Shown one piece after another: positions 2,830 through 28,891 of a stretch of 29,459 nt of DNA. The position numbers were made by a program, and so were the translations under genes. Every line of letters begins with the position of its first letter. Within the stretch, counting starts at the first letter, position 1. The notes beneath the pieces were generated by a model. It did no database searches. It was not told where the DNA came from and was given only the letters and a program-made list of their open reading frames with translations. Source of the stretch: a virus. The stretch lies in the UHGV virus genome UHGV-0320987. One strand, 5' to 3'.

Positions 2830-3114
2830 TCAAATATAGAAATAAACACCAAAACAAACAGTAACAGGAACAACAAAGTCAAACAGGCTTCCAACATCCC
2901 ATACGCGCGGATCAAAACCGCCCCACCACGGCATGTTCATACGCTTGCCATGCCCGAACATTTCAATCCAGCGATATTCTGCCTGGGTGTGTTCACGCGC
3001 AATGAAGAACGTACAACCAGCTATCGCTCCGTAAGCCCAGTTTCCGGTAAAAAGGCCAATCAGTACCTGCGCAGCCACAGCACAAAACGCATGAAGGAAA
3101 GGTGTTATATCCAT
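2830..3114 (-). CDS. Small hydrophobic membrane protein between tailspike and lysis genes (lysis-associated or lysogenic-conversion factor)
   Basis: 94 aa starting MDITPFLHAF with strong SD AAGGAG 6 nt upstream of ATG 3114; two hydrophobic segments. The longer ORF-track start at 3183 would overlap the tailspike and lacks an RBS. Confidence 0.5.
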   Translation of the reverse strand: MDITPFLHAFCAVAAQVLIGLFTGNWAYGAIAGCTFFIAREHTQAEYRWIEMFGHGKRMNMPWWGGFDPRVWDVGSLFDFVVPVTVCFGVYFYI

Positions 3115-3148
3115 TATCGCTCCTTTAACATAAGGATAAATAAACACT

Positions 3149-5464
3149 TCATAAAATAGATTTCGTCTTTGTAACAATAACATCTACAAAATCGCCTGCA
3201 GATATAGCTGATGGTACTGTATCTGCAAGAGTAATCTTTCCTGAAGAGATGCTTTGCACATCCAATAATTTATTTTCAATCCCATCCGTATATACCAATT
3301 TGATATCACTGAATGGAGGGTAATAAGTAATGGTCGCTTGGTATACATATATTTCACTGCCTGAAATTGATTTCACTACATACCTGCCCCTTACAAGATT
3401 AATTTTGAGTTCAGATAAATCTGTTTTATAACAGGTAATTCCTGAACCAATGTTAGCCATACTAATATCAGTATCACTATGATAAGTAATTGCTTTACCT
3501 TGCTTTAAAGTAAAAGTATTTTTACTTTTCCTTGGTAAGGATGTGCTATTTTTGTAATATCTACCAGTTAAGCATAGCCATGAAAATGCAGTATTCACTA
3601 CATTACCACCAGAATACACAGCTAAACGAATTGCACTAACTGGAACTCCTTCATTATTAATCCTGATCTTAATGGAAGAAATATTAGTAGCAGTTCCATA
3701 TCTATGGTTAGCAGAATCCCATTGCATCGAAGAAGTTATGGCTTCTGTTTGTGAGGTTATGACATTCCCGTCTCCATCTAATGCATACAGGTAAATGCGA
3801 AACGATGCCGTATCTGCTGAGAATGTAAACATATCACCATTTCTTACTGGTATATCTCCAGATTCCCATAACAACCCAAAATTCCGCATAAAAGCAAACT
3901 TAGAAGAAACTAGGTGACGGATATTATATAAACCATCTACATCTGTTTGATATGCTAATACACCAACTTCTCCATTGTTGGCACTGGATATAAATGGGGT
4001 GTTAGCATTTAAAGAAAACAATGTTACTTCATCGGATATATTTTCCTGAACATGAAATACTGCATTCCCCTTGCCATTATCAGTTACCTCTACATAAGTG
4101 TAAGGTGATGGATTGTATGGTTCATTTGTATAGTAAGGAGAACTTAACCATGAAGCCTCAATTGAGTTATTCCACGTATATTCACCAAAGTTAATTATCA
4201 ACTGTTGGTTAGTTGGGGATGATGGATATCGTTCAAAACGAAACCCGTAGAAGTAATTGTTATCACCTCTTTGAATATCAATTTTACCTGCCCCCTCCAT
4301 AGTTCCACCATAAAACTTATTGTGGTTATGATGATATGGATTATCAGCGAAAATGATATTATTCGTACGATTCAGATAAAAATAGTTTTCATTTATCCAT
4401 CCGTTCTCAACTCCAAGAAAATGAATTGTATCGACCTTTTTCAGGTTAAAGGTTGAGTATGCTATTGAATAATCCGTCGATGCCACCGAAGCATTATAAT
4501 TTGCATATAACTGTAAGTAGTCGCAACGCTCAATGTTTATATGCTGCCCTTTTGCCCCGATAATACGAATATCCGGTGTCGTTTCAGATGAAATACCAGA
4601 ATTTCTGATAATCGTTCCGAAGTTTTGTCTTGGGTTGTTAGGGTTTGATGCATTCCCGCCAAGCAATACCCCTATTCCTGAGTGGGATATGGTAAAAACA
4701 GCATTGGTCATTTCGAGGCTGACATTACGAAGATTTAATGTCTCCGTAATAATAAAATTACCTTCCGCTCGTAATGTTCTGGATGATTCTCGTGCATATT
4801 CTGCAGCCAGGATCAATGCAGATGTATCATCTGTTATACCATCGCCTTTTGCCCCAAAATCGCGAACACTAACGGTGTCTCTCATCTTATCCTGGAACGT
4901 TCGGTATACTGCTCCAGAACCATACTGAATAAACCAACCAAAACCACCAACAACCCCGGCGATTGCAGCATCGACATAATTACGCATTGAGCGATTATTT
5001 ACAGCGTCCTGCTCAAGTGATGGATCTGCAAGGTTAGAAATTTTGTTTTGCTTTGCATCGTAATATTTTGCAAGCAAAGATGGTTTCATCAATGCACGTC
5101 TGAACCACCCAAAACATTGCTGGATCAGCATCGTCAGGTAGTCAAAAGCATCTTCATGCACTTCGGGGAAAAATTTTCCCTGATTGCGAAGATCTGTCTC
5201 CTGCACTACATCAAGCACACGATCTATCGTAATTCGCCAGCCAGCAGCAAGCGGAGACGGCAGAACCACTGAACCGCCACTATAAGTGCCCGCCCCAGTT
5301 ACCGTATAACCGGTATCCAGAACCAATTCTGTTACGTTCCCGTTCAGGTCAGACACCTGAACAACCAGGTCTGATTTTCTGAAAATTCGAAAAGTATACG
5401 GAAACGATGTCGTAACGCCGTTACCTGTGTATTCGTTGTGGTCAACTTCGGTTGAGACCGTCAT
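3149..5464 (-). CDS. Tailspike (conserved particle-binding N-terminus, beta-helix polysaccharide depolymerase body)
   Basis: 771 aa; N-terminal MTVSTEVDHNEYTGNGVTTSFPYTF is the conserved tail-fibre/tailspike anchor motif; DFGAKGDGITDDTSAL is a pectate-lyase-like beta-helix signature; GGAG 7 nt upstream of the ATG; AT-rich, N/S/T/Y-rich body. Confidence 0.85.
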   Translation of the reverse strand: MTVSTEVDHNEYTGNGVTTSFPYTFRIFRKSDLVVQVSDLNGNVTELVLDTGYTVTGAGTYSGGSVVLPSPLAAGWRITIDRVLDVVQETDLRNQGKFFPEVHEDAFDYLTMLIQQCFGWFRRALMKPSLLAKYYDAKQNKISNLADPSLEQDAVNNRSMRNYVDAAIAGVVGGFGWFIQYGSGAVYRTFQDKMRDTVSVRDFGAKGDGITDDTSALILAAEYARESSRTLRAEGNFIITETLNLRNVSLEMTNAVFTISHSGIGVLLGGNASNPNNPRQNFGTIIRNSGISSETTPDIRIIGAKGQHINIERCDYLQLYANYNASVASTDYSIAYSTFNLKKVDTIHFLGVENGWINENYFYLNRTNNIIFADNPYHHNHNKFYGGTMEGAGKIDIQRGDNNYFYGFRFERYPSSPTNQQLIINFGEYTWNNSIEASWLSSPYYTNEPYNPSPYTYVEVTDNGKGNAVFHVQENISDEVTLFSLNANTPFISSANNGEVGVLAYQTDVDGLYNIRHLVSSKFAFMRNFGLLWESGDIPVRNGDMFTFSADTASFRIYLYALDGDGNVITSQTEAITSSMQWDSANHRYGTATNISSIKIRINNEGVPVSAIRLAVYSGGNVVNTAFSWLCLTGRYYKNSTSLPRKSKNTFTLKQGKAITYHSDTDISMANIGSGITCYKTDLSELKINLVRGRYVVKSISGSEIYVYQATITYYPPFSDIKLVYTDGIENKLLDVQSISSGKITLADTVPSAISAGDFVDVIVTKTKSIL

Positions 5465-5568
5465 GTTAAATCTCCAGATAGTCGCAGCACCCGTTGCGCC
5501 GCATATCTGGTTATTCTATTACCCAAAAAACCATATATGGATAGAAAGACTGTGAATATGAATAGATA

Positions 5569-5583
5569 TTACCTTTCAGGTAA
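5569..5583. promoter_or_regulatory. Operator-like palindrome TTACCTTTCAGGTAA (copy 1)
   Basis: Perfect TTACC-N5-GGTAA inverted repeat in the divergent tailspike / Ant-C-paralogue intergenic region; identical to the copy at 25214. Confidence 0.6.
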
Positions 5584-5620
5584 TTTGCAAAACGTGCTGG
5601 ATAGCAAACAAATTATTTGC

Positions 5621-5640
5621 TACTGTATAAATATACAGTT
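5621..5640 (+). promoter_or_regulatory. LexA (SOS) box overlapping the -10 region of the Ant-C-paralogue promoter
   Basis: TACTGTATAAATATACAGTT matches the E. coli consensus TACTGTATATATATACAGTA at 18/20 with perfect CTGT-N8-ACAG (5623-5638); 22 nt upstream of ATG 5661. Confidence 0.65.
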
Positions 5641-5660
5641 ATTGCATGGAGAAGATTAAG

Positions 5661-5918
5661 ATGCAGCAGTATCACTATCCACTGGAAGACGGATTTACCG
5701 AAAGGATTCACACGCCGGGAGGCGTCAGGTCACTGGTGGAGGGATCGCACTTGATGAAATTACTCCGGGATCTCGATAAGGATGGATTTAATGTCGATGG
5801 CCCACTTGCTGAACTGACTGCACTGATTAACTACGTCACCAGCTCACAGATGTCTATGCGGGATCTGCAAACACATCTCGACTATTGTGCCGAACAATTA
5901 CGAAAACAAACCACATAA
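5661..5918 (+). CDS. Free-standing paralogue of the antirepressor C-terminal domain (candidate SOS-inducible small antirepressor)
   Basis: About 45 percent identity over about 60 aa with the C-terminus of the antirepressor at 7066-7761 (IHTPGGV.SL.E.S.LM.LL..L..DG..V.G..AELT...Y......RD.QTH..Y). Start taken at ATG 5661 (GGAGAAG 8 nt upstream); ATG 5646 is the alternative. Confidence 0.6.
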   Translation: MQQYHYPLEDGFTERIHTPGGVRSLVEGSHLMKLLRDLDKDGFNVDGPLAELTALINYVTSSQMSMRDLQTHLDYCAEQLRKQTT

Positions 5919-5940
5919 AAAAAAGGCCGCAAGAGCGGCC
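5917..5940 (-). terminator. Intrinsic terminator of the zinc-ribbon gene (weaker in the plus direction)
   Basis: GGCCGC-AAGA-GCGGCC hairpin (5925-5940) overlapping the TAG stop; an 8-nt A-run on the plus strand gives a U8 tract for the minus-strand transcript. Confidence 0.7.
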
Positions 5941-6668
5941 TATCGTTTCGCTTTGTGCTCGTCCCAGCACGTTTTGCACCATGCCATTAAGCCGTCCGCA
6001 TTTTGATTATTAGAGTAAAAGCTGGTGCGTTTTCTGCGGACATTACAAATTGGGCACCACTTCATATGGCGTGTATTCTTTGGGCCATCGAGACACCTTG
6101 CACACCACTTAGTCAATCCATCTGGATTTTTTGACGATTTCCTGAATTTTTCATATGGAAGGTTTATTCTGCATCGCAAACACTGCTTACTACCACTTGA
6201 AACTCTGTTAGCTGATTCTTCTTGTGATGGCGATACAGAAGGTATTCTTGCTGGCTCAGATACTACCTGAGGAGCTTTTTTAGGTAACTGAGACGATATG
6301 TCATCACCTGGGAATCTGTCATGATATGCCGGACGCGTTGACACTCCAGGTGGAAGCTCTGCTGTAAATGGCTTTGGCTGAATCAGCGCCCTCTCTTTTG
6401 CTGACTCCTGTTGTTTATAATATGTCTGGATTACCGATATATCATAAGCAGGATGTACTGAAATATCCGGCGCATTACCTCCAGTTTTTTGAAACTGAGT
6501 GGAGGTGTGGTCTATCACCTGTGTACGATTAATCGTTATTTCTCCATCTTCGGTCTTTATCGTTTTGCGATGATTAACGACTGTGCGATCAGAGACCTTA
6601 GTCCTGTTCTGGTTGATAACGTAAATAATCACCGTAACAACACCAACAACTATCCAGAAAACTTCCAT
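5940..6668 (-). CDS. Membrane-anchored protein with a C-terminal double zinc-ribbon (four CxxC pairs); function unknown
   Basis: 242 aa; N-terminal TM helix (FWIVVGVVTVIIYVI); T/Q/P/S-rich linker; C-terminus CLRC..WCARC..WCPIC..WCKTC with an internal repeat (NPDGLTKWCARC / NADGLMAWCKTC); GAGGA 6 nt upstream of the ATG. Confidence 0.65.
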   Translation of the reverse strand: MEVFWIVVGVVTVIIYVINQNRTKVSDRTVVNHRKTIKTEDGEITINRTQVIDHTSTQFQKTGGNAPDISVHPAYDISVIQTYYKQQESAKERALIQPKPFTAELPPGVSTRPAYHDRFPGDDISSQLPKKAPQVVSEPARIPSVSPSQEESANRVSSGSKQCLRCRINLPYEKFRKSSKNPDGLTKWCARCLDGPKNTRHMKWCPICNVRRKRTSFYSNNQNADGLMAWCKTCWDEHKAKR

Positions 6669-6688
6669 TGCTTTTCCTCACAATAACA

Positions 6689-6703
6689 TTACCTTAAAGG
6701 TAA
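6689..6703. promoter_or_regulatory. Operator-like palindrome TTACCTTAAAGGTAA (copy 2)
   Basis: Part of a perfect 17-bp palindrome ATTACCTTAAAGGTAAT, 21 bp upstream of the zinc-ribbon gene start codon, i.e. over its core promoter. Confidence 0.6.
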
Positions 6704-6781
6704 TATCTTGCTTTCAGGTGATCAAGCGTTAAACGCAATCAACCAAATACGGTTGATTTTAATATTTCTCCGCGTTTATCA

Positions 6782-6796
6782 TTACCTTTTCGGTAA
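6782..6796. promoter_or_regulatory. Operator-like palindrome TTACCTTTTCGGTAA (copy 3)
   Basis: Perfect TTACC-N5-GGTAA in the zinc-ribbon / ant divergent region, 79 bp from copy 2. Confidence 0.55.
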
Positions 6797-6888
6797 ATTT
6801 ACATCGCACTCCTCTTGTGCCATAGTAATCGGGCACTGGCAAAATCCAGTGCCGGGATTGGCGTCCCGGATTACTAAAAGGCGCATTC

Positions 6889-6908
6889 ACCGCGCAAGCG
6901 GTTTTTTT
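6889..6908 (+). terminator. Terminator-like hairpin upstream of ant (possible attenuator or 3' end of a small RNA)
   Basis: ACCGC-GCAA-GCGGT (GNRA loop) followed by T6-7; preceded by further hairpins (GCACTGG..CCAGTGC 6833-6852) in a region without a credible ORF. Confidence 0.4.
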
Positions 6909-7065
6909 ATGCGTATAGCACGGCCACATTCGTATTATGGTGGGCTGTGTGGGGGCACCGAAAGGTGCGCCGGGTCCTTTTAGCCGGTTACGCCAACCCT
7001 GCACAGTTCACCACCAACCGATTGGCGTCGGTAGTGGTGATTGACCAGACTAAAAGGTAACCACT

Positions 7066-7761
7066 ATGACAGCTACAAAAAGCACGTCCATTTTTTCTTT
7101 CGAATCCCAAGCCGATATACGAGTAATCGTCATTAATGGTGAGCCATGGTTTATCGCTTCAGATGTTTGTCGGGCTATAGGCATAGCAAACCATCGAGAT
7201 GCTGTTCGAAAACTTGATGATGATGAGAAGGGCGTCGCTTCAACCGACACCCCTGGCGGTGAGCAAGAATCGATCATCATCTCCGAGTCAGGCCTCTACA
7301 CACTGATCCTCCGCTGCCGCGACGCAGTGACACCAGGCACTATCCCCTACCGCTTTCGTAAATGGGTTACAGGTGAGGTTCTTCCTCAGATCCGCCGCAC
7401 CGGAAGTTACATTAAAAACTCGCTCCCGCAGGAAGAACGCATAAAGATGGTTGCCGACCAGGTTGCAAACGCCACAGCATCAGCAGTGATGCAGGCAATG
7501 AAGATAGAGAACAAAACCTACAGCGCCCCACTGAAGCCCGGCTACCGTAGCCTGATTCATTCGCCGTCTGGTGTTCTCGGCCTGACGGAGAACTCACTGC
7601 TGATGAATCTGCTGAACCAGTTACAGGAAGACGGGCATGACGTATCGGGCGCGGCGGCGGAACTGACCACCATGTTCTGCTACATCGTTGGTGTGAGCAA
7701 ATGCCTGCGTGATATCCAGACTCACGCGGAGTACATCAACGACAAAGCAGGATTCTTCTGA
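7066..7761 (+). CDS. Phage antirepressor (Bro-N/KilA-N-like N-terminal domain plus Ant C-terminal domain)
   Basis: N-terminus IRVIVINGEPWFIASDVCRAIGIANHRDAVRKLDDDEKGV is the Bro-N/AntA-type domain; the C-terminal domain is paralogous to the 5661-5918 product; AAAGG about 9 nt upstream of the ATG. Confidence 0.75.
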   Translation: MTATKSTSIFSFESQADIRVIVINGEPWFIASDVCRAIGIANHRDAVRKLDDDEKGVASTDTPGGEQESIIISESGLYTLILRCRDAVTPGTIPYRFRKWVTGEVLPQIRRTGSYIKNSLPQEERIKMVADQVANATASAVMQAMKIENKTYSAPLKPGYRSLIHSPSGVLGLTENSLLMNLLNQLQEDGHDVSGAAAELTTMFCYIVGVSKCLRDIQTHAEYINDKAGFF

Positions 7762-7769
7762 CTAGCGGC

Positions 7770-7788
7770 GGCACAGGGATGTGCCTTT
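7770..7788 (+). terminator. Weak hairpin terminator after ant
   Basis: GGCACA-GGGA-TGTGCC followed by TTTAAATAATT (interrupted T-tract), 9 nt after the ant stop codon. Confidence 0.35.
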
Positions 7789-7934
7789 AAATAATTCTGT
7801 ACAGATTGCAGACTGTGGGTGAATAGCGTACTATTACCTTACGGGTGATCCATAGCGATTAGGCACCGATACAGGAGGAGCCCACATGAGAAAATTTGAC
7901 GAGTACGAAGGCGTTTAACATTCGGATAGTTCAT

Positions 7935-7949
7935 TTACCCTAATGGTAA
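7935..7949. promoter_or_regulatory. Operator-like palindrome TTACCCTAATGGTAA (copy 4)
   Basis: Perfect TTACC-N5-GGTAA 41 bp upstream of the 211-aa gene start; a degenerate copy TTACCTTACGGGTGA lies at 7834-7848. Confidence 0.55.
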
Positions 7950-7989
7950 ATCCCGCTTAAAGAAGCATCTATATATTATGAGGTGATGT

Positions 7990-8625
7990 ATGCCACAACA
8001 ACTGCTGAATCCAGCAAAGGTAACTGAGGTTTTCGCTCATCTGAACGAAACTCCAGACAACCGCGCCCTGTATTCAGAGTTAGTGAACGGCAACGATGTC
8101 ACATCTGATGTCAAAGGCGTTTCTCTGGCTCCTGGATACCGCGTTGTCCGTGTAGACGATCGTAAGAAAGGCGAGATTCCACAGGCGCACTTTGAACTGT
8201 CATTGATAAATGACCTCACCGAAGAGGTAGTGTATTACAATCGTGTCATTATCCAGCCTGACAGCTATCTTAACTGCCGTCCTGTCACGCAGATATTGGT
8301 ATGGAGAACCCAGAAGCCTAAGCATCGTGCTGTGCTTCATGATTTCGCCGGCATCATCTTCATGAACTACCTCTTGGAACGGTACGATATCATCGTGTCT
8401 GATCGCAACCAGACTCATGAAGGCATGTCGTTCTGGCAGGCTCGCATGTATGACGCACTGGAACTTGGCCTCCACCTCTATGGTTACGACATGATGACAT
8501 GCGAGCTGATAGAGATGAATAACGAGGAAGAGCTTGAGAAAGGTGAAACCTGGTTATGGGGTGATGCGGAAAACTTCCAAAACAGATTGGCCATAATTTC
8601 AAAGCATAAGCTGCCAATAAAATAG
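7990..8625 (+). CDS. Hypothetical cytoplasmic protein (orphan cargo gene)
   Basis: 211 aa, no TM or signal peptide and no motif I recognise; GAGGTGA 5 nt upstream of the ATG; own operator copy upstream and own terminator downstream. Confidence 0.65.
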   Translation: MPQQLLNPAKVTEVFAHLNETPDNRALYSELVNGNDVTSDVKGVSLAPGYRVVRVDDRKKGEIPQAHFELSLINDLTEEVVYYNRVIIQPDSYLNCRPVTQILVWRTQKPKHRAVLHDFAGIIFMNYLLERYDIIVSDRNQTHEGMSFWQARMYDALELGLHLYGYDMMTCELIEMNNEEELEKGETWLWGDAENFQNRLAIISKHKLPIK

Positions 8626-8631
8626 TTCTTT

Positions 8632-8655
8632 AAGCCCGCGGCGCGGGCTTTTTTG
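8632..8655 (+). terminator. Intrinsic terminator after the 211-aa gene
   Basis: AAGCCCG-CGGCG-CGGGCTT hairpin followed by TTTTTT (8649-8654). Confidence 0.75.
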
Positions 8656-8685
8656 TGGACGAAACAAAAGTCAGTGCTACACTCA

Positions 8686-8713
8686 TTGACGCCACATTGA
8701 GGTGGCTTATAGA
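8686..8713 (+). promoter_or_regulatory. Candidate sigma70 promoter for the small secreted peptide gene
   Basis: TTGACG (-35, 8686-8691), 16-bp spacer, TATAGA (-10, 8708-8713); the predicted start site is only a few nt before ATG 8727, implying a very short leader. Confidence 0.4.
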
Positions 8714-8726
8714 TGGAAATGTCACA

Positions 8727-8888
8727 ATGAAAAAAGCATTTGCTGCACTGTTCGTTTTGTTGTCTCTGGTAGCTTCAACTCAGGCCTTTGCCGGTCGTTG
8801 TCAGCACGACAGCGATACTGCCGCTGACGGCTCCCGCTGCGGTGGGCGTTCTGCGGATTCCCGCCCGGGCGGCGGTGGCATTCGTTAA
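8727..8888 (+). CDS. Small secreted Cys/Gly-rich peptide (53-aa precursor)
   Basis: Classic Sec signal peptide MKKAFAALFVLLSLVASTQAFA with AxA cleavage site; about 31-aa mature part with two Cys and a Gly-rich tail; terminator directly after the stop. The ORF-track start at 8655 is a GTG inside the upstream terminator. Confidence 0.45.
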   Translation: MKKAFAALFVLLSLVASTQAFAGRCQHDSDTAADGSRCGGRSADSRPGGGGIR

Positions 8889-8916
8889 AAACAAGGCCGC
8901 GAAAGCGGCCTGTTTG
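8887..8916 (-). terminator. Intrinsic terminator ending the ejection-protein operon (also usable by the plus-strand peptide gene)
   Basis: AGGCCGC-GAAA-GCGGCCT hairpin (8894-8911); the minus strand reads the hairpin followed by TGTTTTTAA. Confidence 0.7.
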
Positions 8917-8917
8917 A

Positions 8918-9769
8918 TCACTGTGCAGTTTTCGCTGATCGATTTTCAGCTCTAAATTCAAGAACCGTTTCAATATTTCTTTCCTTCAGCATATCAATAA
9001 CATTTTTATTCATTTGACTATCACTGGTTAATAACTGGTAAACGTCGCTTCTCTCTTTATCAGAGTTTTCTTTAACAGCTGCTTTGCATGCCAAATGCTT
9101 ATTGAAATTTTCTACATCGCTAGTACAGGAATTTACGGCTGCTGATGAAATATCAGACGCTGAAGAAACACCATCATCCAAACGTTTTATAGCATTTTCT
9201 ATACATGAGTTAAGGGAATAAACGACAACTGAGCGATACCCTTCAGACGCACACCATTCTAAATTTCTTGAAGGATCGAGTGGTTTTACTTCGCTGGATT
9301 GAATTAACTTGTCAAAAACTGACTTATATTCAATCTGTTTTTTATCTATAGCCCATACTTCAGTAGCTGATTTATAATTCCCCGTATGCCTATTAACATC
9401 AAATCCATGTTTTATAAGCAAATCTGCCCATGAAAGATTTATTGATTCATTGTTATGAGGCCATTTTCCTGTCAGAACCGCCCCCATAGACCCCATATAT
9501 CCGCCATATGATGGTATAGCACCATGGCTCAGTAACTTCTCAGCAACCACAGGGCAATTAATTACATAAGAGGCGTAAAGCCCATTCCATAAAGCCCCTC
9601 TATAGTAATCGCCACGATTAGGTTCTTTTAAGTCGATAGCCTTTGATAATTGTTCACACGTTTTGCATGCATCAAAGTTATCCTTATTGCATTGCAATGA
9701 ACTGGCAGCTGTAGGATTTACAGAGACTATTGAAAGCACTATGCCAAAAAACAAATTTATTTTTTTCAT
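8918..9769 (-). CDS. Secreted protein of unknown function appended to the ejection-protein operon (possibly ankyrin-like repeats)
   Basis: 283 aa; signal peptide MKKINLFFGIVLSIVSVNPTAAS; AT-rich relative to neighbours; ATG 2 nt after the upstream stop; segments VAEKLLSHGAIPS and ADLLIKHGFDVNRHT resemble ankyrin-repeat helices (weak, from memory). Confidence 0.65.
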   Translation of the reverse strand: MKKINLFFGIVLSIVSVNPTAASSLQCNKDNFDACKTCEQLSKAIDLKEPNRGDYYRGALWNGLYASYVINCPVVAEKLLSHGAIPSYGGYMGSMGAVLTGKWPHNNESINLSWADLLIKHGFDVNRHTGNYKSATEVWAIDKKQIEYKSVFDKLIQSSEVKPLDPSRNLEWCASEGYRSVVVYSLNSCIENAIKRLDDGVSSASDISSAAVNSCTSDVENFNKHLACKAAVKENSDKERSDVYQLLTSDSQMNKNVIDMLKERNIETVLEFRAENRSAKTAQ

Positions 9770-9770
9770 C

Positions 9771-12700
9771 CTATTTCATCTGCTCTTCAACTTTATTTAG
9801 TAATGGTGATATCGCCCACAGGTTCTGAAAAGGTAGCATTTTACGGACCGCGTGGGTTTGCTGGCTGTCAAATTCTCCGTTAAGTACACCATTCGCAACC
9901 GTCGCGGCATCACCGCCAAGATCAAAGGTAGGACCAAGTAAAGCACCAATAGCATTACGACTCTGAAACCTTGATACCGGAGGCGCACCAAACATCGCGC
10001 CAAGACCAAACCTACCACCGCTTATGTTCTCAACGGTATTCAGCGGCTCAGAGAGCCAGCCAAGCATTCCGCCCCGGTCGATCCCCTCTTTCACAAGGTT
10101 ATTCCAGCTGTAGTCAATATCGCGACCGCTTAACTTCTGTTTCATCATATAGACCATTGAGCCAAGCGCAATCGTGCCAAGCGCACCAAGATAGAATGCA
10201 GCATCGCCCTGCTGGATACCAGATACCAGCACCCTGTTATGCTGTGCGAAGATAAACGTTTTGAACTGCGTGATCATCTTCCAGCCTTCTTTACTAAAAA
10301 ACAGCGGTGTATCACCTACGCCAGGCGTTACAATCACTGAGTCTACATCTTTCAGCACTGCAGACTGGAAAATCTCTCTAGCGAAACGGTCATCCCACAG
10401 ATGACTATGCCCGGTTAACAGCCCGTCCATATCCTCTCCGTGCTTCCCGAATTGCTCCCCGATTCGGCGCAGAACATCTTCATTGATGCCGACCTGTGCC
10501 ATCTTCCGCATTTCACTTTTGGAGAGCGTGCCACCAGCAGAAACTTGGCGAGCCGCGTCAAGTATCCTCGACTGCACTATCATCCCAGACCATGATTTAA
10601 GTGCGCTGTTCCACTGATTCATCAGCGTCCAGTTACCGAATTTCTGCGTCATCCAGTTCAGGCCTCGCTCAGCGGCGCTTCTCCGGCTATATGGGTCAGT
10701 AAGATCCGCTATAGCCTTTGTACGCGTAGACAGGACATAATCAAGCCCAACGGCCATTTCTCGCAAATCCCTGGTTGCAATCTTCACTGAGTCCATATTT
10801 TTAAGCATGCTTACCATTGGTCCGAGAGATTTTCTCAGGCCATGCTGCATCATCGGTCGCATCAGATCAGTTGCAGCGGAGACGGTCATTCCACCAAGCA
10901 AACGGAGGAAGTTAATATTCCTAGCAACTCGCCCGGCACGAACAAAGAAACTGCGTGGATCTTGAGGTGCACCGTAAGTACCAAGCAGTCGATCACGCAT
11001 AGCCGTAATATCCCTAATATCAGCCTCCCGTTGCTTCTCAAGAACTGCACGTCGTTTAGGTGTTTTAGCCTCTTTTATTAGCCGGGTATATTCCTCACTA
11101 ACCTGACGGATTTGCTCCCCCATATCTTTACGGCCAAACTGCGCAGTCAGCTCAATTTCTGGTGCCACCTGCCGGAGATAACTTTCCATGATGTAGTTAA
11201 CATCTGATTCAAGAAAATCTTCTATACGCTCATCAGGAATAAGCAGCGTTCTGCTTTTAGTGAAACCAGCCCGACCAACGAGTCTCTCTGGGATAATATC
11301 GGCTGGTACAAGCCCGGAAGGTGCGCCTATTATTTTATTCACGATCTCGTCAGCAGCGTCCTCTGCTTCCTCTCGGGATAGAGGCTCCATCTGCTTCAGT
11401 GCTCGTTCGCGGCTTGCATTCAGCCTTGTGGTTGAATTTGCCCGTTTTTGCAGTCGGCGAAGCTCAGAACGATATTTCCGTGGATTATCCAACAACTCCA
11501 TATGGCGCTGATAGACAGGAAGCTCACTCTTTGCCTGCGCTATATCATCAAGGCGTGTTTTAAGGTCAGAGCTTTCTTTCATCATTCTTGCCTGAAGTTT
11601 TTCTGATGAAGTCTCGGCCAACTCTTTTTCTATTCTTGTAAGACGCGCCTGTGTGTCAGTCTCCTGAGATATAAGCTTATTTCGTTTATCCAGTTCTTCC
11701 ATGAGTAGAATTTTTTTACCAGACCATTTCTCCGCTTCAGCGATTTCACTAGCGAGAGCATCAGCGCGCGGTGCCGATTCCTCTGCAGTTTTTAGCAATG
11801 AATTTATCCTTTCAATTCGCTGACCTGCTTTGTCAGCACCTTTGGCACTAATCCCTTGTATCCAGTTGGCAATTCGCCCTCTGAATTCAGTGCGGTCGGA
11901 AAGTATCTTATCGAACTTATAAATGCGGGGAAGATAACTTTTCGCCGTCACGACATCGATATCCTTAGGAAGGATCCCCAGTTCCTGCATACGGGCTTTT
12001 GTGGTCTCGAAAATGGGGCGGATTCTGGCGGCTGCTTGTGAAACCTCAGGAATATCACTCTGATCACCACGGCGCATAGCCATGCCAACAGCTTCATTGA
12101 AATCAATAAAGTTCATCCTCTTCACGCCGCGGGCGCTAACAGATTTGCTGTACTGCTGGTAAGCATCACGAGTGGCTTCCATCTGCTTATAAAGCATGGC
12201 GTCGTATTGCTTAATCTTAGTCTCGACTGCCGTAAACGTAGCCAACCCCTCATCATTTTTGGCGAAGAAATAGTTATTTTCGGCAAGCTGCTGGTTAATC
12301 TGACGGGAGACAAGAGATGGTGATTGCGCCAAGCGGCCAGCAGGAGTGACACTCAACGTTTTGTTAGCAAGTCCAAGTCCAGCGAGCTGTTCCTGATCGA
12401 GTGTGGTATTGAAAACCTGAGCTGCACCAATGCTTTGAGGAGAATCCATACCTCGCAAATGATTACCTACTGAGTTAACCACTGCCTCGCGCGCGCCAGG
12501 TCCAGCAAGTAGCTGTGCACCAGCACCAAGGATCCCACCAACGAGAGCATCAACAACAACGTTCGATACGCTCTCCATCGGTGAGCGAGCTTCCTGAGTG
12601 GCCTGTAATGCGGCCTCTGAAGCAACACTGCCAGCAGCATTCGCCAGGGCAAAACGCCCGGCTGTTTCTGCAATACGACCGCCACGAACGACAGCGCCGA

Positions 12701-13160
12701 ACGGAATAAACATAGAAATCGCATTGAATGGATCTGCTAATCTCATTGCTACAGAAGAGACTGTACCAGCAAATCCCAAGCCTGAATTGTATTCCATGTC
12801 AGCTCTCTGCTGATCGATTCGATGTTTAATTGCCATTGTTTCTTCAGGCGAACCGGAGTTGATAAACGAATCTGCAAAATCTTCATAGCCTTTAATATCT
12901 GCTGCATCGTTATCAAATGGGTTATATCCTTCAACCCTGTCAAACTGACTGAAAGGAGCACTGGCAATAAAGCTACCCAGCGTGTTATCTATACGAAATG
13001 CTGCTTGTCTAGACCTTTGAACGCGTTGATCACTGGTAAATGGGTTCACAGCAGAAAGCAAAGAAGGTGTTTCCATATAGAAATTACTGTCATCAGGTGC
13101 TGCTATTTGCTGAATATCCTCGCCAAGCAACTTTTTAGGATCCTGTTCATATATCGGCAT
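9771..13160 (-). CDS. Large internal virion / DNA-ejection protein (T7 gp16-like by position)
   Basis: 1129 aa, last large gene of the T7-like core-protein block; central coiled-coil region (ARLTRIEKELAETSSEKLQARMMKE...); start overlaps the upstream stop (TAATG). Confidence 0.6.
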   Translation of the reverse strand: MPIYEQDPKKLLGEDIQQIAAPDDSNFYMETPSLLSAVNPFTSDQRVQRSRQAAFRIDNTLGSFIASAPFSQFDRVEGYNPFDNDAADIKGYEDFADSFINSGSPEETMAIKHRIDQQRADMEYNSGLGFAGTVSSVAMRLADPFNAISMFIPFGAVVRGGRIAETAGRFALANAAGSVASEAALQATQEARSPMESVSNVVVDALVGGILGAGAQLLAGPGAREAVVNSVGNHLRGMDSPQSIGAAQVFNTTLDQEQLAGLGLANKTLSVTPAGRLAQSPSLVSRQINQQLAENNYFFAKNDEGLATFTAVETKIKQYDAMLYKQMEATRDAYQQYSKSVSARGVKRMNFIDFNEAVGMAMRRGDQSDIPEVSQAAARIRPIFETTKARMQELGILPKDIDVVTAKSYLPRIYKFDKILSDRTEFRGRIANWIQGISAKGADKAGQRIERINSLLKTAEESAPRADALASEIAEAEKWSGKKILLMEELDKRNKLISQETDTQARLTRIEKELAETSSEKLQARMMKESSDLKTRLDDIAQAKSELPVYQRHMELLDNPRKYRSELRRLQKRANSTTRLNASRERALKQMEPLSREEAEDAADEIVNKIIGAPSGLVPADIIPERLVGRAGFTKSRTLLIPDERIEDFLESDVNYIMESYLRQVAPEIELTAQFGRKDMGEQIRQVSEEYTRLIKEAKTPKRRAVLEKQREADIRDITAMRDRLLGTYGAPQDPRSFFVRAGRVARNINFLRLLGGMTVSAATDLMRPMMQHGLRKSLGPMVSMLKNMDSVKIATRDLREMAVGLDYVLSTRTKAIADLTDPYSRRSAAERGLNWMTQKFGNWTLMNQWNSALKSWSGMIVQSRILDAARQVSAGGTLSKSEMRKMAQVGINEDVLRRIGEQFGKHGEDMDGLLTGHSHLWDDRFAREIFQSAVLKDVDSVIVTPGVGDTPLFFSKEGWKMITQFKTFIFAQHNRVLVSGIQQGDAAFYLGALGTIALGSMVYMMKQKLSGRDIDYSWNNLVKEGIDRGGMLGWLSEPLNTVENISGGRFGLGAMFGAPPVSRFQSRNAIGALLGPTFDLGGDAATVANGVLNGEFDSQQTHAVRKMLPFQNLWAISPLLNKVEEQMK

Positions 13161-15907
13161 TATTTGCCCCCTGCGTATATATTGCTCGGAAGGTAATTGG
13201 CTGAACCATAACCGAATGGTTTGGTCAGATCTGGAGGAGTATATCCATCTTTATTGCTGAACTGCGGCAGCGGATTGCCTTCTCTCCGCACTCTAGCCTC
13301 ATCAACACGCTGTTGCTGGAACTGAATGGTTTGCCTGTACATTGGAGATGTCAGCTGATCCGGCTTGAAACGAACAGGGAGACCATTTTCTCCAATATAA
13401 TTTCTCGGTTCTATCGCTCCGTTTGCGTCAGGCTGTAAAACCATAACAGCATAACTCCTATCCCTTGCCGTAAGGCCATCAGAAACAAGTATTAAGTCCG
13501 TATCACTGCGAGGACCGCCAAAGGATTTTGATTTAAGCTCGCGTTTTTCCTGCTCCCACTGCCCCTGTATCCAGTTACCAGCACCATTATTTACTCCGTA
13601 CAATGCCTCAGGTGCATACTTCATAACCTCTGCTTTGCCATTAACCGTAGAAACTCCCCAAGTGGTTCTGATCATGGCATTGGTCATTTTCTCAGCCTGT
13701 TCTGCATCGCCACCTGTCTGTACAAAGTTAGCATCGTAAATTGTCTGGTAATCTCGCTGATAGGCCGCATTTGATTTTCCTGGATCGGTAATATCCGGAG
13801 ACCACGAACCAAAGGAAGTCAGACTGCTGGCGTTATTTTGTGCAGCAGTTGCCCTCGCCGCGACATATTTTTTGTCTCGCATGGCAGTGGAAAGCATCTG
13901 TTTCATTCGGTCATCCTGTTGGAACACCTGGCTGTAAGCCATATCAACAGCCTTATCCTCCGGCACGCCAGCGCGGGAATAATCGTAAACCTTGCCGTAA
14001 AATGCCATCGTACTTTTATCAAGTGTTGCCGCTGCCGCCGGATTATTATCGAATAACTGACCGTAGAATTTTGCCATCGGGACAACCAGCGCAGGATCTC
14101 TTGATGTTGCTCCACTGTTAAGCATTGTTTTAACCTGAGTTGGTATCATGCCGCTTTTAGTTGTGACGGTGACCAGTGTATTGATGCTCTGCGGATCAGA
14201 TATGGAAAACGAAGGCGCGATATCCTGCGCGAAATAACGGTCTACCGCTGCCTGATTGTTTTTGTCGTTCGGGTCCAGCGGGAAGTTATTTTGCATTGAA
14301 GACACGAACCTGTTTCTTCCCTGCTGAATCTCCCACTCCCTATCCATCTCTTTAAATTTGGCCTGCATTTTCTCCCAGCGTTGCTGGTTAGCTGCAAATC
14401 CAGGAGCGTTTGGATCCTGTGGACGTAAACGTTCAAGAATGTCTTGTCGTCCTTCTGGAGTGAGGTCTTTAGCGGCACCAATGACACCTCCATATTGTAT
14501 CTGCGCCTGCATATCCTTCCACTTCATAGCGCCAATGCGCGGACCATTGGCCCGGATAAAATCGTCCTCAGAAGGTAACTGCTCAGGTTTCAATCCTTCA
14601 TCAAGGGCTGAATATGCATCTTTAACTACGGTGCTAAGCTGGTCCGCATACTGCTGGCGGTACTGATTTCTCAGCTCATTAGCCTGCCTCAATGCCTGTA
14701 TTTGCATTTGAGGGCTCATAGCATCAAATGCCGCATTGCCCGTATAACGCTTAGGTGAATCAAGGTTAGTTAGACCAAGGGCTGCCGAGATACCAGTTTC
14801 AAGCTGTTCGGTGCTATAAGGCATACTGCCATTTTCGTGTTTAATAATCCCAGCACATAAAGCAGCTAGTGTCTTTGGGTTAGAGATATCAAGCTGATCA
14901 TTCTCCCCAACACCAAGCTCACCACACAATGCCCTAATATAAGCATCAGTATTATTACCATCACTAGCCGGAGCATAGCGATTAACAATCTCGCTAACGG
15001 TGTCATAGCCTTGACGCTGGTAAGACAACATATTTTTACCCAACGCGCGGATTCCATGCTCAGGGGTAGCAAACGTTGCAAAACGTCCATCGCTACCGAT
15101 CTGACCTTCCCACGGGTTAGATTTGCTCGCTTCAATATTACCAGGGTTATTATTACGTAACCCACGAGCATCCAATGAATTACCATGTGACATTGCACGA
15201 CTCACACCGTCAAGATCCCCTGGCTCTCCATTAACCTGAAGAAACTCGTTGTATTTTTGAGCGATATTTCCTATCCATGCTTGCTGCCCCATTTGTTCCT
15301 TGAGCTGAGTTTTCTGCTGAACACGCCACTCATCAGGAAGCCCATGCGCATCAGCGTATTGATCAATAGATTCAAATCGCTGCTTGGCTAAATCGACAAA
15401 TGCTTGGTTATCGCTATATAGCCCCGCAGACTGAGTGACAGCCAATGCATTTCCTGACAAATACGTTTGATCTTGGAATTGCTGAAACTGCCCAACTTCA
15501 TATCGACGTGCCTGATTGTAATAAGACTGCATAGACTGCTGGAGTTGAAAGGATAATTTATTCCTTTCCTCACTTTCAGGAATTGAGCCTAATAATGCCT
15601 GAGCCCTTTCCTGCATATTTTTCATAACAGCGTCACTCTGACCAAGAGCGTTTTTACCCTGTTTAGAAATCAGCCCATTTTCAGGGTTGTTAATCTGGTC
15701 ATCTGCAAATTGGTTAAATTGCAGTAACGCCTCCTGGGCCATAGCAACATTCGCTTTCTGCCTGGCTTCACCATATGCCACCGCATACTGATCTGCGACA
15801 TTCGCCAGCACCTGACCTGCTTGAGGAACATCGAAGGTCTGAAAACCACCGGTTTGCACACCACGACTTTGCACCTGGCGTCCGGATGTAGTAGGAACAA
15901 CAGGCAT
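13160..15907 (-). CDS. Internal virion / ejection protein (T7 gp15-like by position)
   Basis: 915 aa Q/A/N-rich protein between the gp14-like and gp16-like genes, with TGATG/TAATG overlaps on both sides. Confidence 0.55.
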   Translation of the reverse strand: MPVVPTTSGRQVQSRGVQTGGFQTFDVPQAGQVLANVADQYAVAYGEARQKANVAMAQEALLQFNQFADDQINNPENGLISKQGKNALGQSDAVMKNMQERAQALLGSIPESEERNKLSFQLQQSMQSYYNQARRYEVGQFQQFQDQTYLSGNALAVTQSAGLYSDNQAFVDLAKQRFESIDQYADAHGLPDEWRVQQKTQLKEQMGQQAWIGNIAQKYNEFLQVNGEPGDLDGVSRAMSHGNSLDARGLRNNNPGNIEASKSNPWEGQIGSDGRFATFATPEHGIRALGKNMLSYQRQGYDTVSEIVNRYAPASDGNNTDAYIRALCGELGVGENDQLDISNPKTLAALCAGIIKHENGSMPYSTEQLETGISAALGLTNLDSPKRYTGNAAFDAMSPQMQIQALRQANELRNQYRQQYADQLSTVVKDAYSALDEGLKPEQLPSEDDFIRANGPRIGAMKWKDMQAQIQYGGVIGAAKDLTPEGRQDILERLRPQDPNAPGFAANQQRWEKMQAKFKEMDREWEIQQGRNRFVSSMQNNFPLDPNDKNNQAAVDRYFAQDIAPSFSISDPQSINTLVTVTTKSGMIPTQVKTMLNSGATSRDPALVVPMAKFYGQLFDNNPAAAATLDKSTMAFYGKVYDYSRAGVPEDKAVDMAYSQVFQQDDRMKQMLSTAMRDKKYVAARATAAQNNASSLTSFGSWSPDITDPGKSNAAYQRDYQTIYDANFVQTGGDAEQAEKMTNAMIRTTWGVSTVNGKAEVMKYAPEALYGVNNGAGNWIQGQWEQEKRELKSKSFGGPRSDTDLILVSDGLTARDRSYAVMVLQPDANGAIEPRNYIGENGLPVRFKPDQLTSPMYRQTIQFQQQRVDEARVRREGNPLPQFSNKDGYTPPDLTKPFGYGSANYLPSNIYAGGK

Positions 15908-16482
15908 CAGTAACCTCCTATTTTGAATCGGGAGTCAGAATTCATAAAACCTGAGTTAGATAACATTGGCGTCCCACCACTAGATGTACTTCCTTTAGAG
16001 AACGGACTCCACGTCCCACCAAACATCTGGTACGCACCGTATGCCTTCAGAGGCGCAGTGAGCAATGTTGTTGCTGCTCCCACATTCCCCTGTTTACGGG
16101 CTGAACTGGCTTCTGCTTTATAGTTGGCAGCCTGAACCTGATAACCGTAAGCCTCGCGTTGCGCGTTATTCACCGTCGTCAGAGAATCAAGAGCGCCAAA
16201 CTGGGCAGTGTCGCCAAATATATCCAGCGCGTTACCTGTAGATAAATCAGCGCCGGTAGCCCCCATTGTCGCCGCCTGTGTACCAAGCCGCTGTCGGGTC
16301 TCTCTGCGCCGTTGCTCAGCTTCAGCGTTACCTCTGTTTATTGCATCATTTGCCTGAGCTGTGGCTATATCTGCGTTCGCTTCTGCAACCTTCGAGGCAT
16401 ACTTTCCCTGTTGGTACTGGGTGTATGCCTGAATGCCACTCATGGCGAGCATTGCGCCACCAGCAATAACCGGATCGCACAT
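15907..16482 (-). CDS. Internal virion protein (T7 gp14-like by position)
   Basis: 191 aa, Ala/Gly/Gln-rich with hydrophobic N-terminus; translationally coupled to its neighbours. Confidence 0.5.
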   Translation of the reverse strand: MCDPVIAGGAMLAMSGIQAYTQYQQGKYASKVAEANADIATAQANDAINRGNAEAEQRRRETRQRLGTQAATMGATGADLSTGNALDIFGDTAQFGALDSLTTVNNAQREAYGYQVQAANYKAEASSARKQGNVGAATTLLTAPLKAYGAYQMFGGTWSPFSKGSTSSGGTPMLSNSGFMNSDSRFKIGGY

Positions 16483-16946
16483 TATTTTCTCTCCATGTGA
16501 AATCTGTGGAAATTAAGACCAAGAGCACCATAAGGCGCGGCTTCTTCAAGCCTGAATCCAAGCCAGTGCAGCCATGCTTTGGCAACATGGTTTCGCTCGT
16601 CGACATAGTTTTCCAGGCGCGGATAAACTGCCAGCATCTGCTGCAATACAGGGCGGCAGTGGCGAAGAAATGTCTTCTGATATTTTTCGATACGGCTGGT
16701 TCCGACCAGCCAGGGCGTACCATTGCCACCGATCATTGACGCCGGAGATACGCCAAACATGGTTACCAGTTCTCCGTTCGCAAATCCTGACCAGGCCATA
16801 GTCGCAGTACGCAGACCAACACGCAGCGCATCTTCGGTAGTCATCAGTGATACCGCATACAGTTCGTCAATATCAGCCTGACGAACATCCGGCAAAATCA
16901 TCTGAAGATGCTCTTCGGTTGCGGGAATAATTTGAACATCGATCAT
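16482..16946 (-). CDS. Internal virion protein (T7 gp13-like by position)
   Basis: 154 aa ORF immediately after the nozzle gene with overlapping stop/start; assignment is by synteny only. Confidence 0.45.
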   Translation of the reverse strand: MIDVQIIPATEEHLQMILPDVRQADIDELYAVSLMTTEDALRVGLRTATMAWSGFANGELVTMFGVSPASMIGGNGTPWLVGTSRIEKYQKTFLRHCRPVLQQMLAVYPRLENYVDERNHVAKAWLHWLGFRLEEAAPYGALGLNFHRFHMERK

Positions 16947-25852: not shown

Positions 25853-26701
25853 ATGAAAAACTTTAAGGTAATTAGTATGTTCGAATCGTTCAAAGAGCTG
25901 TTTTTATCTACTGCCAACACTGCCGTGCATCGAGCTAAAAACCCTGTGCTTGGTGCTTTTGTTATGTCCTGGTGCGCCTTCAACTGGAAATCACTTCTTT
26001 ATCTATTTTTTAGCAAATCAAATATAATAGATAAAATTTCATATATCTCAGATAACAGCACATGGAAAACTGTTATGTTTTATCCATGCTTATCTGTAAT
26101 TACTATCTGCTGCCTATTACCATGGGTAAACAATATCATTAACGTATGGCAAGCAAAGCCTCTTGATAATAATGACTCAATCGAAAATCACCGGAAGGCA
26201 AGAAAAATACAACGTGAAACACGGCTACAGAGATTGCTGGCTAAAAAAGACATTACTTACGAAAAAGTAAAAACAGGCGCTGAAAAAAACATTCAAGATA
26301 TGAAAGAGGAAATAATTCTTTCAAAAGACAGAATGGGACAACTCACATCTGAATTGAAAGAGAGGGAGACAGAACTGCGCGCAGCACAAGCTCGTATTTT
26401 AGAATTATCTAAGGTTATTGATGAAACAACATCTAAACTAGAAAATCTAGAAAAAGCTCACAAACAATTAAAAGACGAATATAAGTCTTATAAAGAAAGT
26501 ATTCATTTGACAACAAACAACTCAATTGCAAATAGACTTGCTGATCCAAAGATAGTACAAATGATTAACGAGTCTGCAAAAAATTTAGGCATTGCTAAAA
26601 TTAACAACCCAGAAATCAGTACATTATTGAATAATCCACTAGCAAATATAAATGGCGGTTTAAATCCCGCCAATCAAAGAAAATCAAAATCACAAAAGTA
26701 A
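25853..26701 (+). CDS. Membrane-anchored coiled-coil protein of unknown function (cargo gene between terminase and portal)
   Basis: 282 aa from ATG 25853 (the ORF-track start at 25688 would run through two terminators); two hydrophobic segments near the N-terminus, then a long heptad-like K/E/L-rich coiled coil and an N/P-rich tail; markedly AT-rich; opposite strand to all flanking phage genes; uses AGA/AGG Arg codons. Confidence 0.7.
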   Translation: MKNFKVISMFESFKELFLSTANTAVHRAKNPVLGAFVMSWCAFNWKSLLYLFFSKSNIIDKISYISDNSTWKTVMFYPCLSVITICCLLPWVNNIINVWQAKPLDNNDSIENHRKARKIQRETRLQRLLAKKDITYEKVKTGAEKNIQDMKEEIILSKDRMGQLTSELKERETELRAAQARILELSKVIDETTSKLENLEKAHKQLKDEYKSYKESIHLTTNNSIANRLADPKIVQMINESAKNLGIAKINNPEISTLLNNPLANINGGLNPANQRKSKSQK

Positions 26702-26704
26702 AAA

Positions 26705-28773: not shown

Positions 28774-28790
28774 AACCACCGTGGTAATAG

Positions 28791-28805: not shown

Positions 28806-28891
28806 TAGTACCATGCAAAATAAAGCCGCCATAGTTGGCGGCAGTATTCAAAACCCATCAAATTCATCATGCATAATCTACTCGTGACATG

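Follow-up and report, generated by a model that had tools for sequence, protein, structure and literature searches.

A probable induction-control and accessory-gene region between the tailspike and ejection-protein genes of an epsilon15-like prophage

The repressor Rep of the Salmonella Uetakevirus SPC32H is counteracted by a small antirepressor, Ant, and the Ant tetramer disrupts Rep tetramers (PMC9638917). The Ant antirepressor of phage P1 is controlled by C1, the C4 RNA and Icd (PMC8201110). In Gifsy-1 of Salmonella, the IsrK substitutions G28A and G31A, together with compensating changes, define a helix of IsrK with a downstream RNA (PMC4825925). Here we analysed the interval 5465-9769 (about 4.3 kb) of a 29,459-nucleotide (nt) stretch of the virus genome UHGV-0320987, called the window in the following. 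The six genes of this island were named g1, g2, ant, g4, g5 and g6 in map order. Our analysis indicates that the interval is probably a region for induction control, or anti-immunity, and for accessory genes, in which two antirepressor modules of known types lie among four uncharacterised accessory genes.

The window was 100% identical to a prophage of the Escherichia coli O166:H15 strain JNE070796, which is integrated between yfgI and guaA, and it matched phiV10, TL-2011b, EC.W1-9 and ZX5 at about 95-98% across portions of its length, with about 95-96% for the first three. The host phage is an epsilon15/phiV10-like temperate podophage, a Uetakevirus prophage. The remaining prophage sequence was taken as locus L004, and a 48-kb prophage region was scanned. 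The structural genes are encoded on the minus strand. The island is bordered by the tailspike gene (3149-5464, minus strand) and the gene of the last ejection/core protein (9771-13160, minus strand, 1129 amino acids), which is the position equivalent to immI of P22, as a first-pass annotation made from the sequence alone had recognised. Its description of the structural operon as tightly coupled was borne out, since every gene across 9771-24902 overlaps or abuts its neighbour. The six genes that it had called in both orientations agreed with the RefSeq calls, and the antirepressor functions that it had seen in the island could be assigned to g1, of the SPC32H type, and to the Bro-N protein Ant. 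It had overlooked the small RNA gene isrK, the C4 RNA gene and a LexA box.

The gene g1 (5661-5918, plus strand) encodes a small antirepressor, an ortholog of SPC32H Ant and of epsilon15 gp19. Residues 2-85 of its product aligned to residues 3-86 of the 86-residue 'Anti-repressor protein', chain E of PDB entry 5D50, with an E-value of 4.6e-47, and the product was 87% identical to that of the SPC32H gene annotated as ant (our statements on SPC32H rest on the PDB entries, the GenBank annotation and PMC9638917). A LexA (SOS) box of 20 nt, TACTGTATAAATATACAGTT, with two mismatches to the consensus, lies on the plus strand at 5621-5640, over the likely -10 region and 20 nt 5' of the g1 start codon. 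It was the sole match in the 48 kb, where 0.00 were expected. The box and a Rep operator are kept upstream of the g1 ortholog in SPC32H, epsilon15, phiV10 and a Klebsiella phage while the neighbouring bases vary, and the LexA box was conserved across the five phages compared. The gene g1 itself was found in 65 of 65 related loci, even where the island had shrunk to 645 bp.

The repressor of the prophage is a protein of 194 amino acids encoded outside the window (L004 38409-38993). It matched the SPC32H 'Repressor' (PDB 5D50_A) with an E-value of 4e-42. A Pfam search found no S24 peptidase (autocleavage) domain in it, only helix-turn-helix domains. Because Rep has no self-cleavage domain, we conclude by analogy that g1 acts as the SOS-dependent induction trigger, with a binding to Rep as deduced from the SPC32H work. 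The marks of the SPC32H type, an Ant of about 86 residues, a Rep without S24 domain and a LexA box at ant, were all present. Judged from these sequence features, g1 is an SPC32H-type LexA-controlled antirepressor and does not belong to the unknowns of the island. LexA at 5621-5640, and probably also Rep at 5568, would silence g1 in the lysogen. After DNA damage LexA would be lost, g1 produced and the Rep tetramer pulled off its operators.

The operators of Rep were recognised as a palindrome, ATTACC-N5-GGTAAT, which occurs five times in the island, at 5568, 6688, 6781, 7833 and 7934. When up to two mismatches were allowed, the window contained 11 matches against 0.92 expected by shuffling, and the 48-kb prophage region contained 18 against 1.3. 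The same motif was found in three copies between the divergent cI-like and cro-like genes, in two copies downstream of cI (OL) and at three further sites of the early region. In the RefSeq record of epsilon15 the equivalent sites are labelled as repressor-binding, including one upstream of gp19 and others in the late region. Going by these matches, the island palindromes are operators of the prophage's own master repressor (Rep/CI). Contrary to what had been claimed, they are not private to the island genes. We infer from their positions that Rep represses the island promoters.

The operator upstream of g1 (5568-5584), ATTACCTTTCAGGTAAT, is a perfect match and was also present in SPC32H, epsilon15, phiV10 and Klebsiella phage BUCT711. 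A perfect palindrome at 6688-6704 overlaps a putative g2 promoter that was read by eye on the minus strand (TTGATC at 6725-6720, a spacing of 17 nt and TACCTT at 6702-6697). It accompanied g2 in every relative that carries this gene, 28 nt from the g2 start. The operator at 6781-6797, whose position is kept in relatives, stands amid two promoter-like sites (6753-6782 and 6798-6826) that are the putative promoters of isrK, C4 and ant. Behind ant, the operator at 7833-7849 overlaps the putative promoter of a cargo slot (TTGCAG at 7806, 17 nt, TACTAT at 7829). Of the 53 related loci that have an ant-type gene, 51 carried an operator copy behind it, ahead of at least 12 different cassettes. A second operator-like palindrome in this place, TTTACCCTAATGGTAAA (7934-7950), is specific to the g4 cassette; among the relatives compared, this type was restricted to the three loci that carry g4.

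Terminator-like sites were found 14 times against 4.6 ± 2.1 expected, and four strong ones had six G-C pairs each. A bidirectional intrinsic terminator at 5924-5941, with a stem of 7 bp, six G-C pairs and a T run, is common to g1 and g2, and another bidirectional one at 8894-8911 is common to g5 and g6. On the plus strand, isrK has its terminator at 6889-6902, and an intrinsic terminator with a stem of 8 bp and six G-C pairs lies downstream of g4 at 8632-8650. The proposal that each gene is bracketed by its own operator and/or terminator was confirmed by the five palindromes and the four strong terminators. The gene g5 has no operator, and g6 has neither an operator nor a promoter of its own. 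The private promoters found little support. A consensus scan returned 4 sites against 9.0 expected and detected only the pair beside the 6781 operator; all promoters outside 6753-6826 were placed by hand.

The second antirepressor gene is ant (7066-7761, plus strand). Its product contains a Bro-N domain (Pfam PF02498, 76.7 bits with a cut-off of 25.6), belongs to phrog_130 (anti-repressor Ant) and carries in its C-terminal 80 residues or so a paralog of g1, with 44% identity over 78 residues. It was 100% identical to ORF4 of phage ZX5. When ZX5 ORF4 was overexpressed, the prophage titre fell from 1e9 to 1e6 and the repressor transcripts decreased by 75% (PMC9782041). Because of this identity to a tested protein, the Bro-N Ant does not count as an unknown either.

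Two RNA genes precede ant on the same strand. The small RNA isrK (6833-6908), which has its own terminator, matched Rfam family RF01394 with 77.9 bits (gathering score 50), and a C4-type antisense RNA (6933-7018) matched RF01695 with 77.7 bits (gathering score 45). IsrK contains the sequence a1, UUGGCGU, in the loop of its second hairpin (6858-6864) and the sequence b1, CUAAAAGG, in a single-stranded linker (6874-6881). The same two sequences return in the ant leader (7022-7057) as the targets a2 (7022-7028) and b2 (7050-7057), of which b2 includes the Shine-Dalgarno sequence of ant. In C4, the loop b', CCUUUUAG (6976-6983), is complementary to b1 and b2 along 8-9 nt; for a', ACGCCAA (6990-6996), the complementarity to a1 and a2 spans 7 nt. 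Both RNA genes also precede a Bro-N ant in phiV10, TL-2011b and EC.W1-9. No isrK-C4 was found in SPC32H, epsilon15 and BUCT711, all three of which have no Bro-N ant.

The pairing was then followed in 80 leader copies from related loci, scored by explicit run-length counts. Three alleles of the 'a' sequence and four of the 'b' sequence were present. In 79 of the 80 copies all three sites co-varied, and the pairing was held at 7-9 nt, whereas non-cognate combinations averaged about 5 nt. A control of ant by an IsrK/C4 RNA switch, similar to immI of P1, is supported by these leader sequences. The Rfam alignment suggests that the positions of the two IsrK RNAs correspond one-to-one; if they do, the Gifsy-1 substitutions G28A and G31A would map to the a1:a' helix.

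An upstream open reading frame (ORF) coupled to ant, like icd or orf45, was considered and rejected. In 29 of the 80 leaders no ORF ends near ant, and the peptides differ by allele; a Pfam search with the leader ORF of 35 residues gave no match. Since such an ORF is not conserved, we propose that C4 would bind the leader by base pairing of a' with a2 and of b' with b2 and so directly occlude the ant ribosome-binding site. The terminated IsrK, which bears a1 and b1, may titrate C4 as a decoy. The 'ash family protein' of 37 residues annotated just upstream of ant in ZX5 (L005 3650-3763, corresponding to 6933-7060 of the window) corresponds to a reading frame translated through the C4 RNA gene. 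Its annotation as a protein is probably spurious, as the frame varies by allele and this ORF is missing from 29 of the 80 leaders.

Several points weigh against this picture of the two antirepressor modules. The mechanisms of P1 and Gifsy-1 may not transfer in detail, as no icd/orf45-type ORF is conserved. The 6781 operator abuts the -35 element of the isrK promoter with its centre at about -44, so that Rep could activate rather than repress here. The promoters other than the pair at 6753-6826 score below the threshold of the consensus scan. Finally, it is puzzling why the phage should need two antirepressors with a common C-terminal domain; the large Ant may have other repressor targets.

Taken together, we favour a layered control in which the g1-dependent loss of Rep would open the remaining promoters of the island, namely the divergent promoter of g2, that of isrK-C4-ant and the conserved promoter behind ant. 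The latter would express whichever cassette occupies the slot, here g4. The gene g5 would be independent of an operator, and g6 would be expressed simply as the last gene of the late operon. Such an arrangement shows the wiring of induction in an epsilon15-like phage, with a LexA-controlled small antirepressor beside an RNA-switched second antirepressor, and it gives roles to four features that had been 'hypothetical' or unannotated (g1, isrK, C4 and the operators).

Rep operators were also observed in other parts of the window. A second accessory island (24903-26704) lies between a small gene on the portal side and the gene of the terminase large subunit. It has a consensus -35 element, TTGACA at 25194, and a -10 element within a Rep operator (25213-25229), followed by a leader of about 300 nt and a tRNA-Arg(UCU) at 25551-25627. 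The last feature of this island is an ORF of 282 amino acids (25853-26701; 33.6% GC) that has no Pfam match. A TATAAT whose last base is 3 nt ahead of its ATG is overlapped by an operator at 25833-25849. The equivalent position in epsilon15 is annotated as a repressor site. In addition, two tandem operator-like palindromes, ATAACCACCGTGGTAAT and GTTACCGTTGTGGTAAT, were seen at 28772-28806, inside the 5' end of the ORF of the terminase small subunit as it was called in this analysis (28177-28851, minus strand). They may be the counterpart of the epsilon15 repressor site just upstream of the terminase gene; if so, Rep would directly control the start of the late operon.

The tailspike side of the island showed further features. 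The C-terminal two-thirds of the tailspike gene (window 3001-4500) have 35-36% GC against about 50% in the backbone, and this part may thus be a receptor-binding module that was swapped in. After the tailspike gene follows a small ORF for a membrane protein without family match (2830-3183), where relatives have an O-antigen acetyltransferase. The block ATTCTATTACCCAAAAAACCATATATGGAT (5513-5545), located between the start of the tailspike gene and the operator of g1, is kept from Klebsiella to Salmonella phages although its flanks differ. Candidates for its role are the tailspike promoter and the integration host factor (IHF) site that is annotated nearby in epsilon15.

The variability of the island was investigated with 80 loci from IMG/VR whose g1 was at least 98% identical. 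The island borders could be defined in 65, including the window and two reference phages. The ORFs of the relatives were called greedily and then clustered. Across the 65 loci the island measured between 645 and 6502 bp and contained 59 protein clusters in 55 distinct gene orders. Coverage of at least 80% of the island under study was found in 1 of 5426 complete E. coli genomes. The island is hence an insertion hotspot with variable content, as the first-pass annotation had suspected, and an identical gene content in all relatives was not observed.

The genes fell into six slots. Slot A holds g1 in all 65 loci. Slot B, on the minus strand, holds g2 (21 of 65) or a protein of 203 amino acids. 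In slot C either isrK-C4 with the Bro-N ant (48 loci) or an ant with another N-terminal but the same C-terminal domain (8 loci) was found. Slot D, downstream of ant, takes at least 12 alternative cassettes behind the conserved operator. These include an ORF of 59 residues with a YafO-like protein in 10 loci (cluster 6; Pfam PF13957, E-value 8e-6), DUF4760 and DUF2335 proteins, g4 in 3 loci and a 30%-identical paralog of g4 in 5. The annotation of one E. coli relative includes a TacA antitoxin. Slot E holds g5 (37 of 65). Slot F, on the minus strand beside the ejection gene, holds g6 (12 of 65), small membrane or lipoprotein genes, or an arc-ant module. An operator copy lies ahead of g1, g2, isrK-ant and nearly all slot D cassettes, and none lies ahead of the genes of slots E and F.

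The gene in slot F follows the allele of the ejection protein. The genes g6 or cluster 27 were found only with the form of 1129 residues and cluster 18 only with that of 850 residues; clusters 7, 8, 19 and 33 went almost only with the 824-residue form and the arc-ant module with the 1004-residue form. This association could be linkage or a functional pairing. The anchors of the island (g1; ant with its operator; g5 with its terminator; the end of the ejection gene) would let homologous recombination swap the cassettes between them, and the repressor-gated slot would let related phages exchange accessory genes.

In TL-2011b (L001 7472-8656), three antirepressor systems were seen in the same island: an SPC32H-type ant, isrK-C4 with the Bro-N ant, and a P22-type arc-ant, which comes with a sar RNA at 8418-8485 (RF00262, 44.8 bits). 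A P22-type mnt/arc/sar module in the window itself was considered and rejected, as neither a sar match nor an Arc- or Mnt-like ORF was present there; such a module was found only in TL-2011b.

It could be argued that the cargo is passenger DNA that hitch-hikes without a role for phage or host, kept since the site tolerates insertions. In SPC32H and epsilon15, ant and a single tiny membrane protein suffice here, and the shortest islands are in line with this. We regard it as improbable. All cargo genes are members of conserved families in which certain residues are invariant from genus to genus, the g4 family alone has 417 clusters at an E-value below 1e-10, and the cassettes are placed behind conserved regulatory elements.

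The cargo proteins were then examined. The product of g2 (5940-6668, minus strand; phrog_6762, of unknown function) is predicted to span the membrane once and to carry, after a Pro-rich linker, two zinc ribbons of the type CxxC...WCxxC in the cytoplasm. Its 33 homologs, all hypothetical, have eight invariant cysteines and a variable linker; their N-terminal transmembrane helix is conserved, and basic residues come after it. Matches of g2 to the endonuclease VII and Lar families in PHROG span the zinc ribbon only. The gene g4 (7990-8625, plus strand) encodes 211 amino acids with a predicted acyl-CoA N-acyltransferase (GNAT-like) fold. The structure model was confident (pLDDT 86), and its weak fold matches included the toxins AtaT and TacT and the Mom protein. 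No match to g4 was found in Pfam or NCBIfam, nor did 41 distant relatives match a Pfam acetyltransferase, and a profile of 42 sequences run against the PDB gave no link to acetyltransferases. In alignments of 34 and 42 sequences the acetyl-CoA loop Q/R-x-x-G-x-G/A was not conserved, and no conserved glycine motif was present between strand 4 and helix 3. The residues W105, R106, D138, W149 and W190 of g4 are invariant. The idea, taken from the annotation of TL-2011b, that g4 is a YafO toxin was rejected, as Pfam gave no match and the YafO-like protein is a different cassette.

The g4 family comprises 915 clusters at 50% identity. In Serratia and Photorhabdus, its members stand alone at the ends of prophages. 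Homologs in Serratia (L091 3925-3960) and Photorhabdus (L090 3938-3960) are preceded by perfect palindromes of unrelated sequence, TACAAC-N4-GTTGTA and GTTATCAA/TTGATAAC. A repressor-type control may therefore be a general trait of the family.

Since Rep operators overlap the hand-placed promoters of g2 and g4, both genes are probably off in the lysogen, and the likely expression window of g4 is the time when the repressor is off. This suggests roles of the cargo during infection or induction more than in the defence of the lysogen. One possibility is that g2 and g4 are early lytic accessory genes, expressed only without Rep, on fresh infection or induction, whose products counteract defences of the host or reprogramme it; g4, for example, might modify a host protein, tRNA or DNA by its acyltransferase-like fold. 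The operator-overlapped promoters would time the expression accordingly, and the GNAT-like fold with its matches to AtaT, TacT and Mom, the wide spread of g4 as a stand-alone accessory gene and the palindromes ahead of two of its homologs speak for it. However, the missing sequence match to acetyltransferase families, distant members included, and the unconserved acetyl-CoA loop speak against it, and we hold this anti-defence or host-takeover role to be possible but not the probable one.

A further idea, which we hold to be rather unlikely, concerns the Rep-operator promoter behind ant. It would be a dedicated expression socket for interchangeable effectors that fires only on repressor loss. 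The effectors would include the YafO-like toxins, the DUF4760 and DUF2335 proteins and the acetyltransferase-fold family of g4 (about 200 residues, at least 915 clusters, no Pfam entry). If true, they could be a new class of induction-coupled factors for anti-defence or host shut-off. Alternatively, they could form a dead-man switch that kills the cell once a foreign antirepressor inactivates Rep.

The remaining two genes encode predicted exported proteins. The gene g5 (8727-8888, plus strand; phrog_14503, 'membrane associated protein') codes for a secreted or membrane-associated peptide of 53 residues with a signal peptide and two cysteines; in 34 of the 37 relatives that have it, the identity was 98-100%. 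The gene g6 (8918-9769, minus strand, 36.9% GC) codes for 283 amino acids with a signal peptide, which predicts a periplasmic protein. Its ATG lies 1 nt past the stop codon of the ejection-protein gene, and g6 is the last cistron of the late (ejection-protein) operon. In the structure model, the N-terminal half was weak, ankyrin-like according to one source, and the C-terminal helical bundle was confident; a fold search with this bundle gave no informative match. A short Cys-flanked motif of g6 is in common with a lipoprotein of 137 residues that replaces it in relatives. With its N-terminal transmembrane helix in g2 and the signal peptides of g5 and g6, the island has the three membrane or secreted products that had been announced. 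Searches of the PDB with g2, g4 and g6, and of Pfam, NCBIfam and PADLOC with g2, g4, g5 and g6, returned nothing informative.

The island was also assessed as a defence or superinfection-exclusion island whose cargo shields the lysogen, with g5 and g6 in the envelope, g2 in the inner membrane and g4 as the effector. The gene content varies as strongly as in arms-race loci, the YafO-like toxin with its small upstream ORF occupies the same slot in 10 of 65 loci, a TacA antitoxin is annotated in one relative, three products are envelope-targeted, and g5 could be expressed in lysogens as it has no operator. Nevertheless, we consider this reading unlikely. The six proteins gave one chance-level match in PADLOC-DB 2.0 (2023), with a best E-value of 0.25, and ten alternative cassettes gave nothing meaningful (E-values 0.006-0.009), in accordance with the earlier statement that no known defence signature is present. 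The operators over the putative promoters of g2 and g4 would silence both genes in the lysogen, when a defence is needed. This silence argues against a lysogen-protecting function of the two, which is somewhat disfavoured, and g6 is a late-operon cistron without its own promoter. The products of g5 and g6 are candidates for an envelope-level exclusion.

The reading as induction control with exchangeable accessory genes was compared to the described systems. One of the close ones is the Rep-Ant pair of SPC32H (PDB 5D50/5D4Z). The product of g1 corresponds to Ant over its full length (87%) and the prophage repressor to Rep, the ant gene has the same location and diverges from the gene of the tailspike, and the same LexA box and Rep operator are upstream. 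SPC32H, however, has only ant and a membrane protein of 46 residues here, whereas this prophage has about 3.6 kb more, with g2, isrK-C4, the Bro-N ant, g4, g5 and g6.

With immI of P1/P7 (c4 - icd - ant) the island has in common a C4-family RNA upstream of the antirepressor gene on the same strand. For P1/P7 immI, the layout a1 b1 - c4 - a2 b2 was reportedly described by Citron and Schuster in 1990. In both, a' and b' match, as complements, one set of repeats that precedes C4 (a1, b1) and one that follows it (a2, b2), and b2 covers the ribosome-binding site. The alleles co-vary, which is the basis of the heteroimmunity of P1 and P7. In contrast to P1/P7, the island has no conserved icd-like coupled ORF, its upstream repeats reside in the separately terminated small RNA IsrK, its Ant is a Bro-N fusion unrelated to Ant1/2 of P1, and its main repressor belongs to a different family.

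The isrK-orf45-anrP locus of Gifsy-1 shows the same succession of a terminated isrK (RF01394), a C4-like RNA region and an antirepressor gene, with a short IsrK that is complementary to the downstream RNA (PMC4825925). Here, however, b2 is the very Shine-Dalgarno sequence of ant, and no conserved orf45 is present. The module is located in the late region of a podophage and not beside an antiterminator gene, and a Rep operator flanks its promoter.

With immI of P22 (mnt-arc-ant-sar, between gene 16 and the tailspike gene 9), the island has in common the map position between ejection genes and tailspike and the overall role as a second immunity region, and the relative TL-2011b has a true arc-ant-sar in the same island. 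The control differs, since the window uses Rep operators, LexA and C4/IsrK. From the GNAT superfamily, with the AtaT/TacT toxins, AcrVA5 and Mom, g4 is set apart by an identity of 5-12% to its fold matches, by the lack of a sequence-level membership and of a recognisable acetyl-CoA-binding loop, and by the absence of an adjacent antitoxin gene.

In conclusion, the island is a genuine feature with clear borders, and its regulatory skeleton is well supported and consists of known kinds of elements, the Ant/Rep pair of SPC32H, the operators of epsilon15 and IsrK/C4. The search for new functions is narrowed to four conserved proteins, and the strongest candidate is the large unnamed family of g4 with its predicted acetyltransferase-like fold. 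Compared with the known systems, the core is already described in relatives, and the combination of genes is rare and brings together four uncharacterised conserved proteins.

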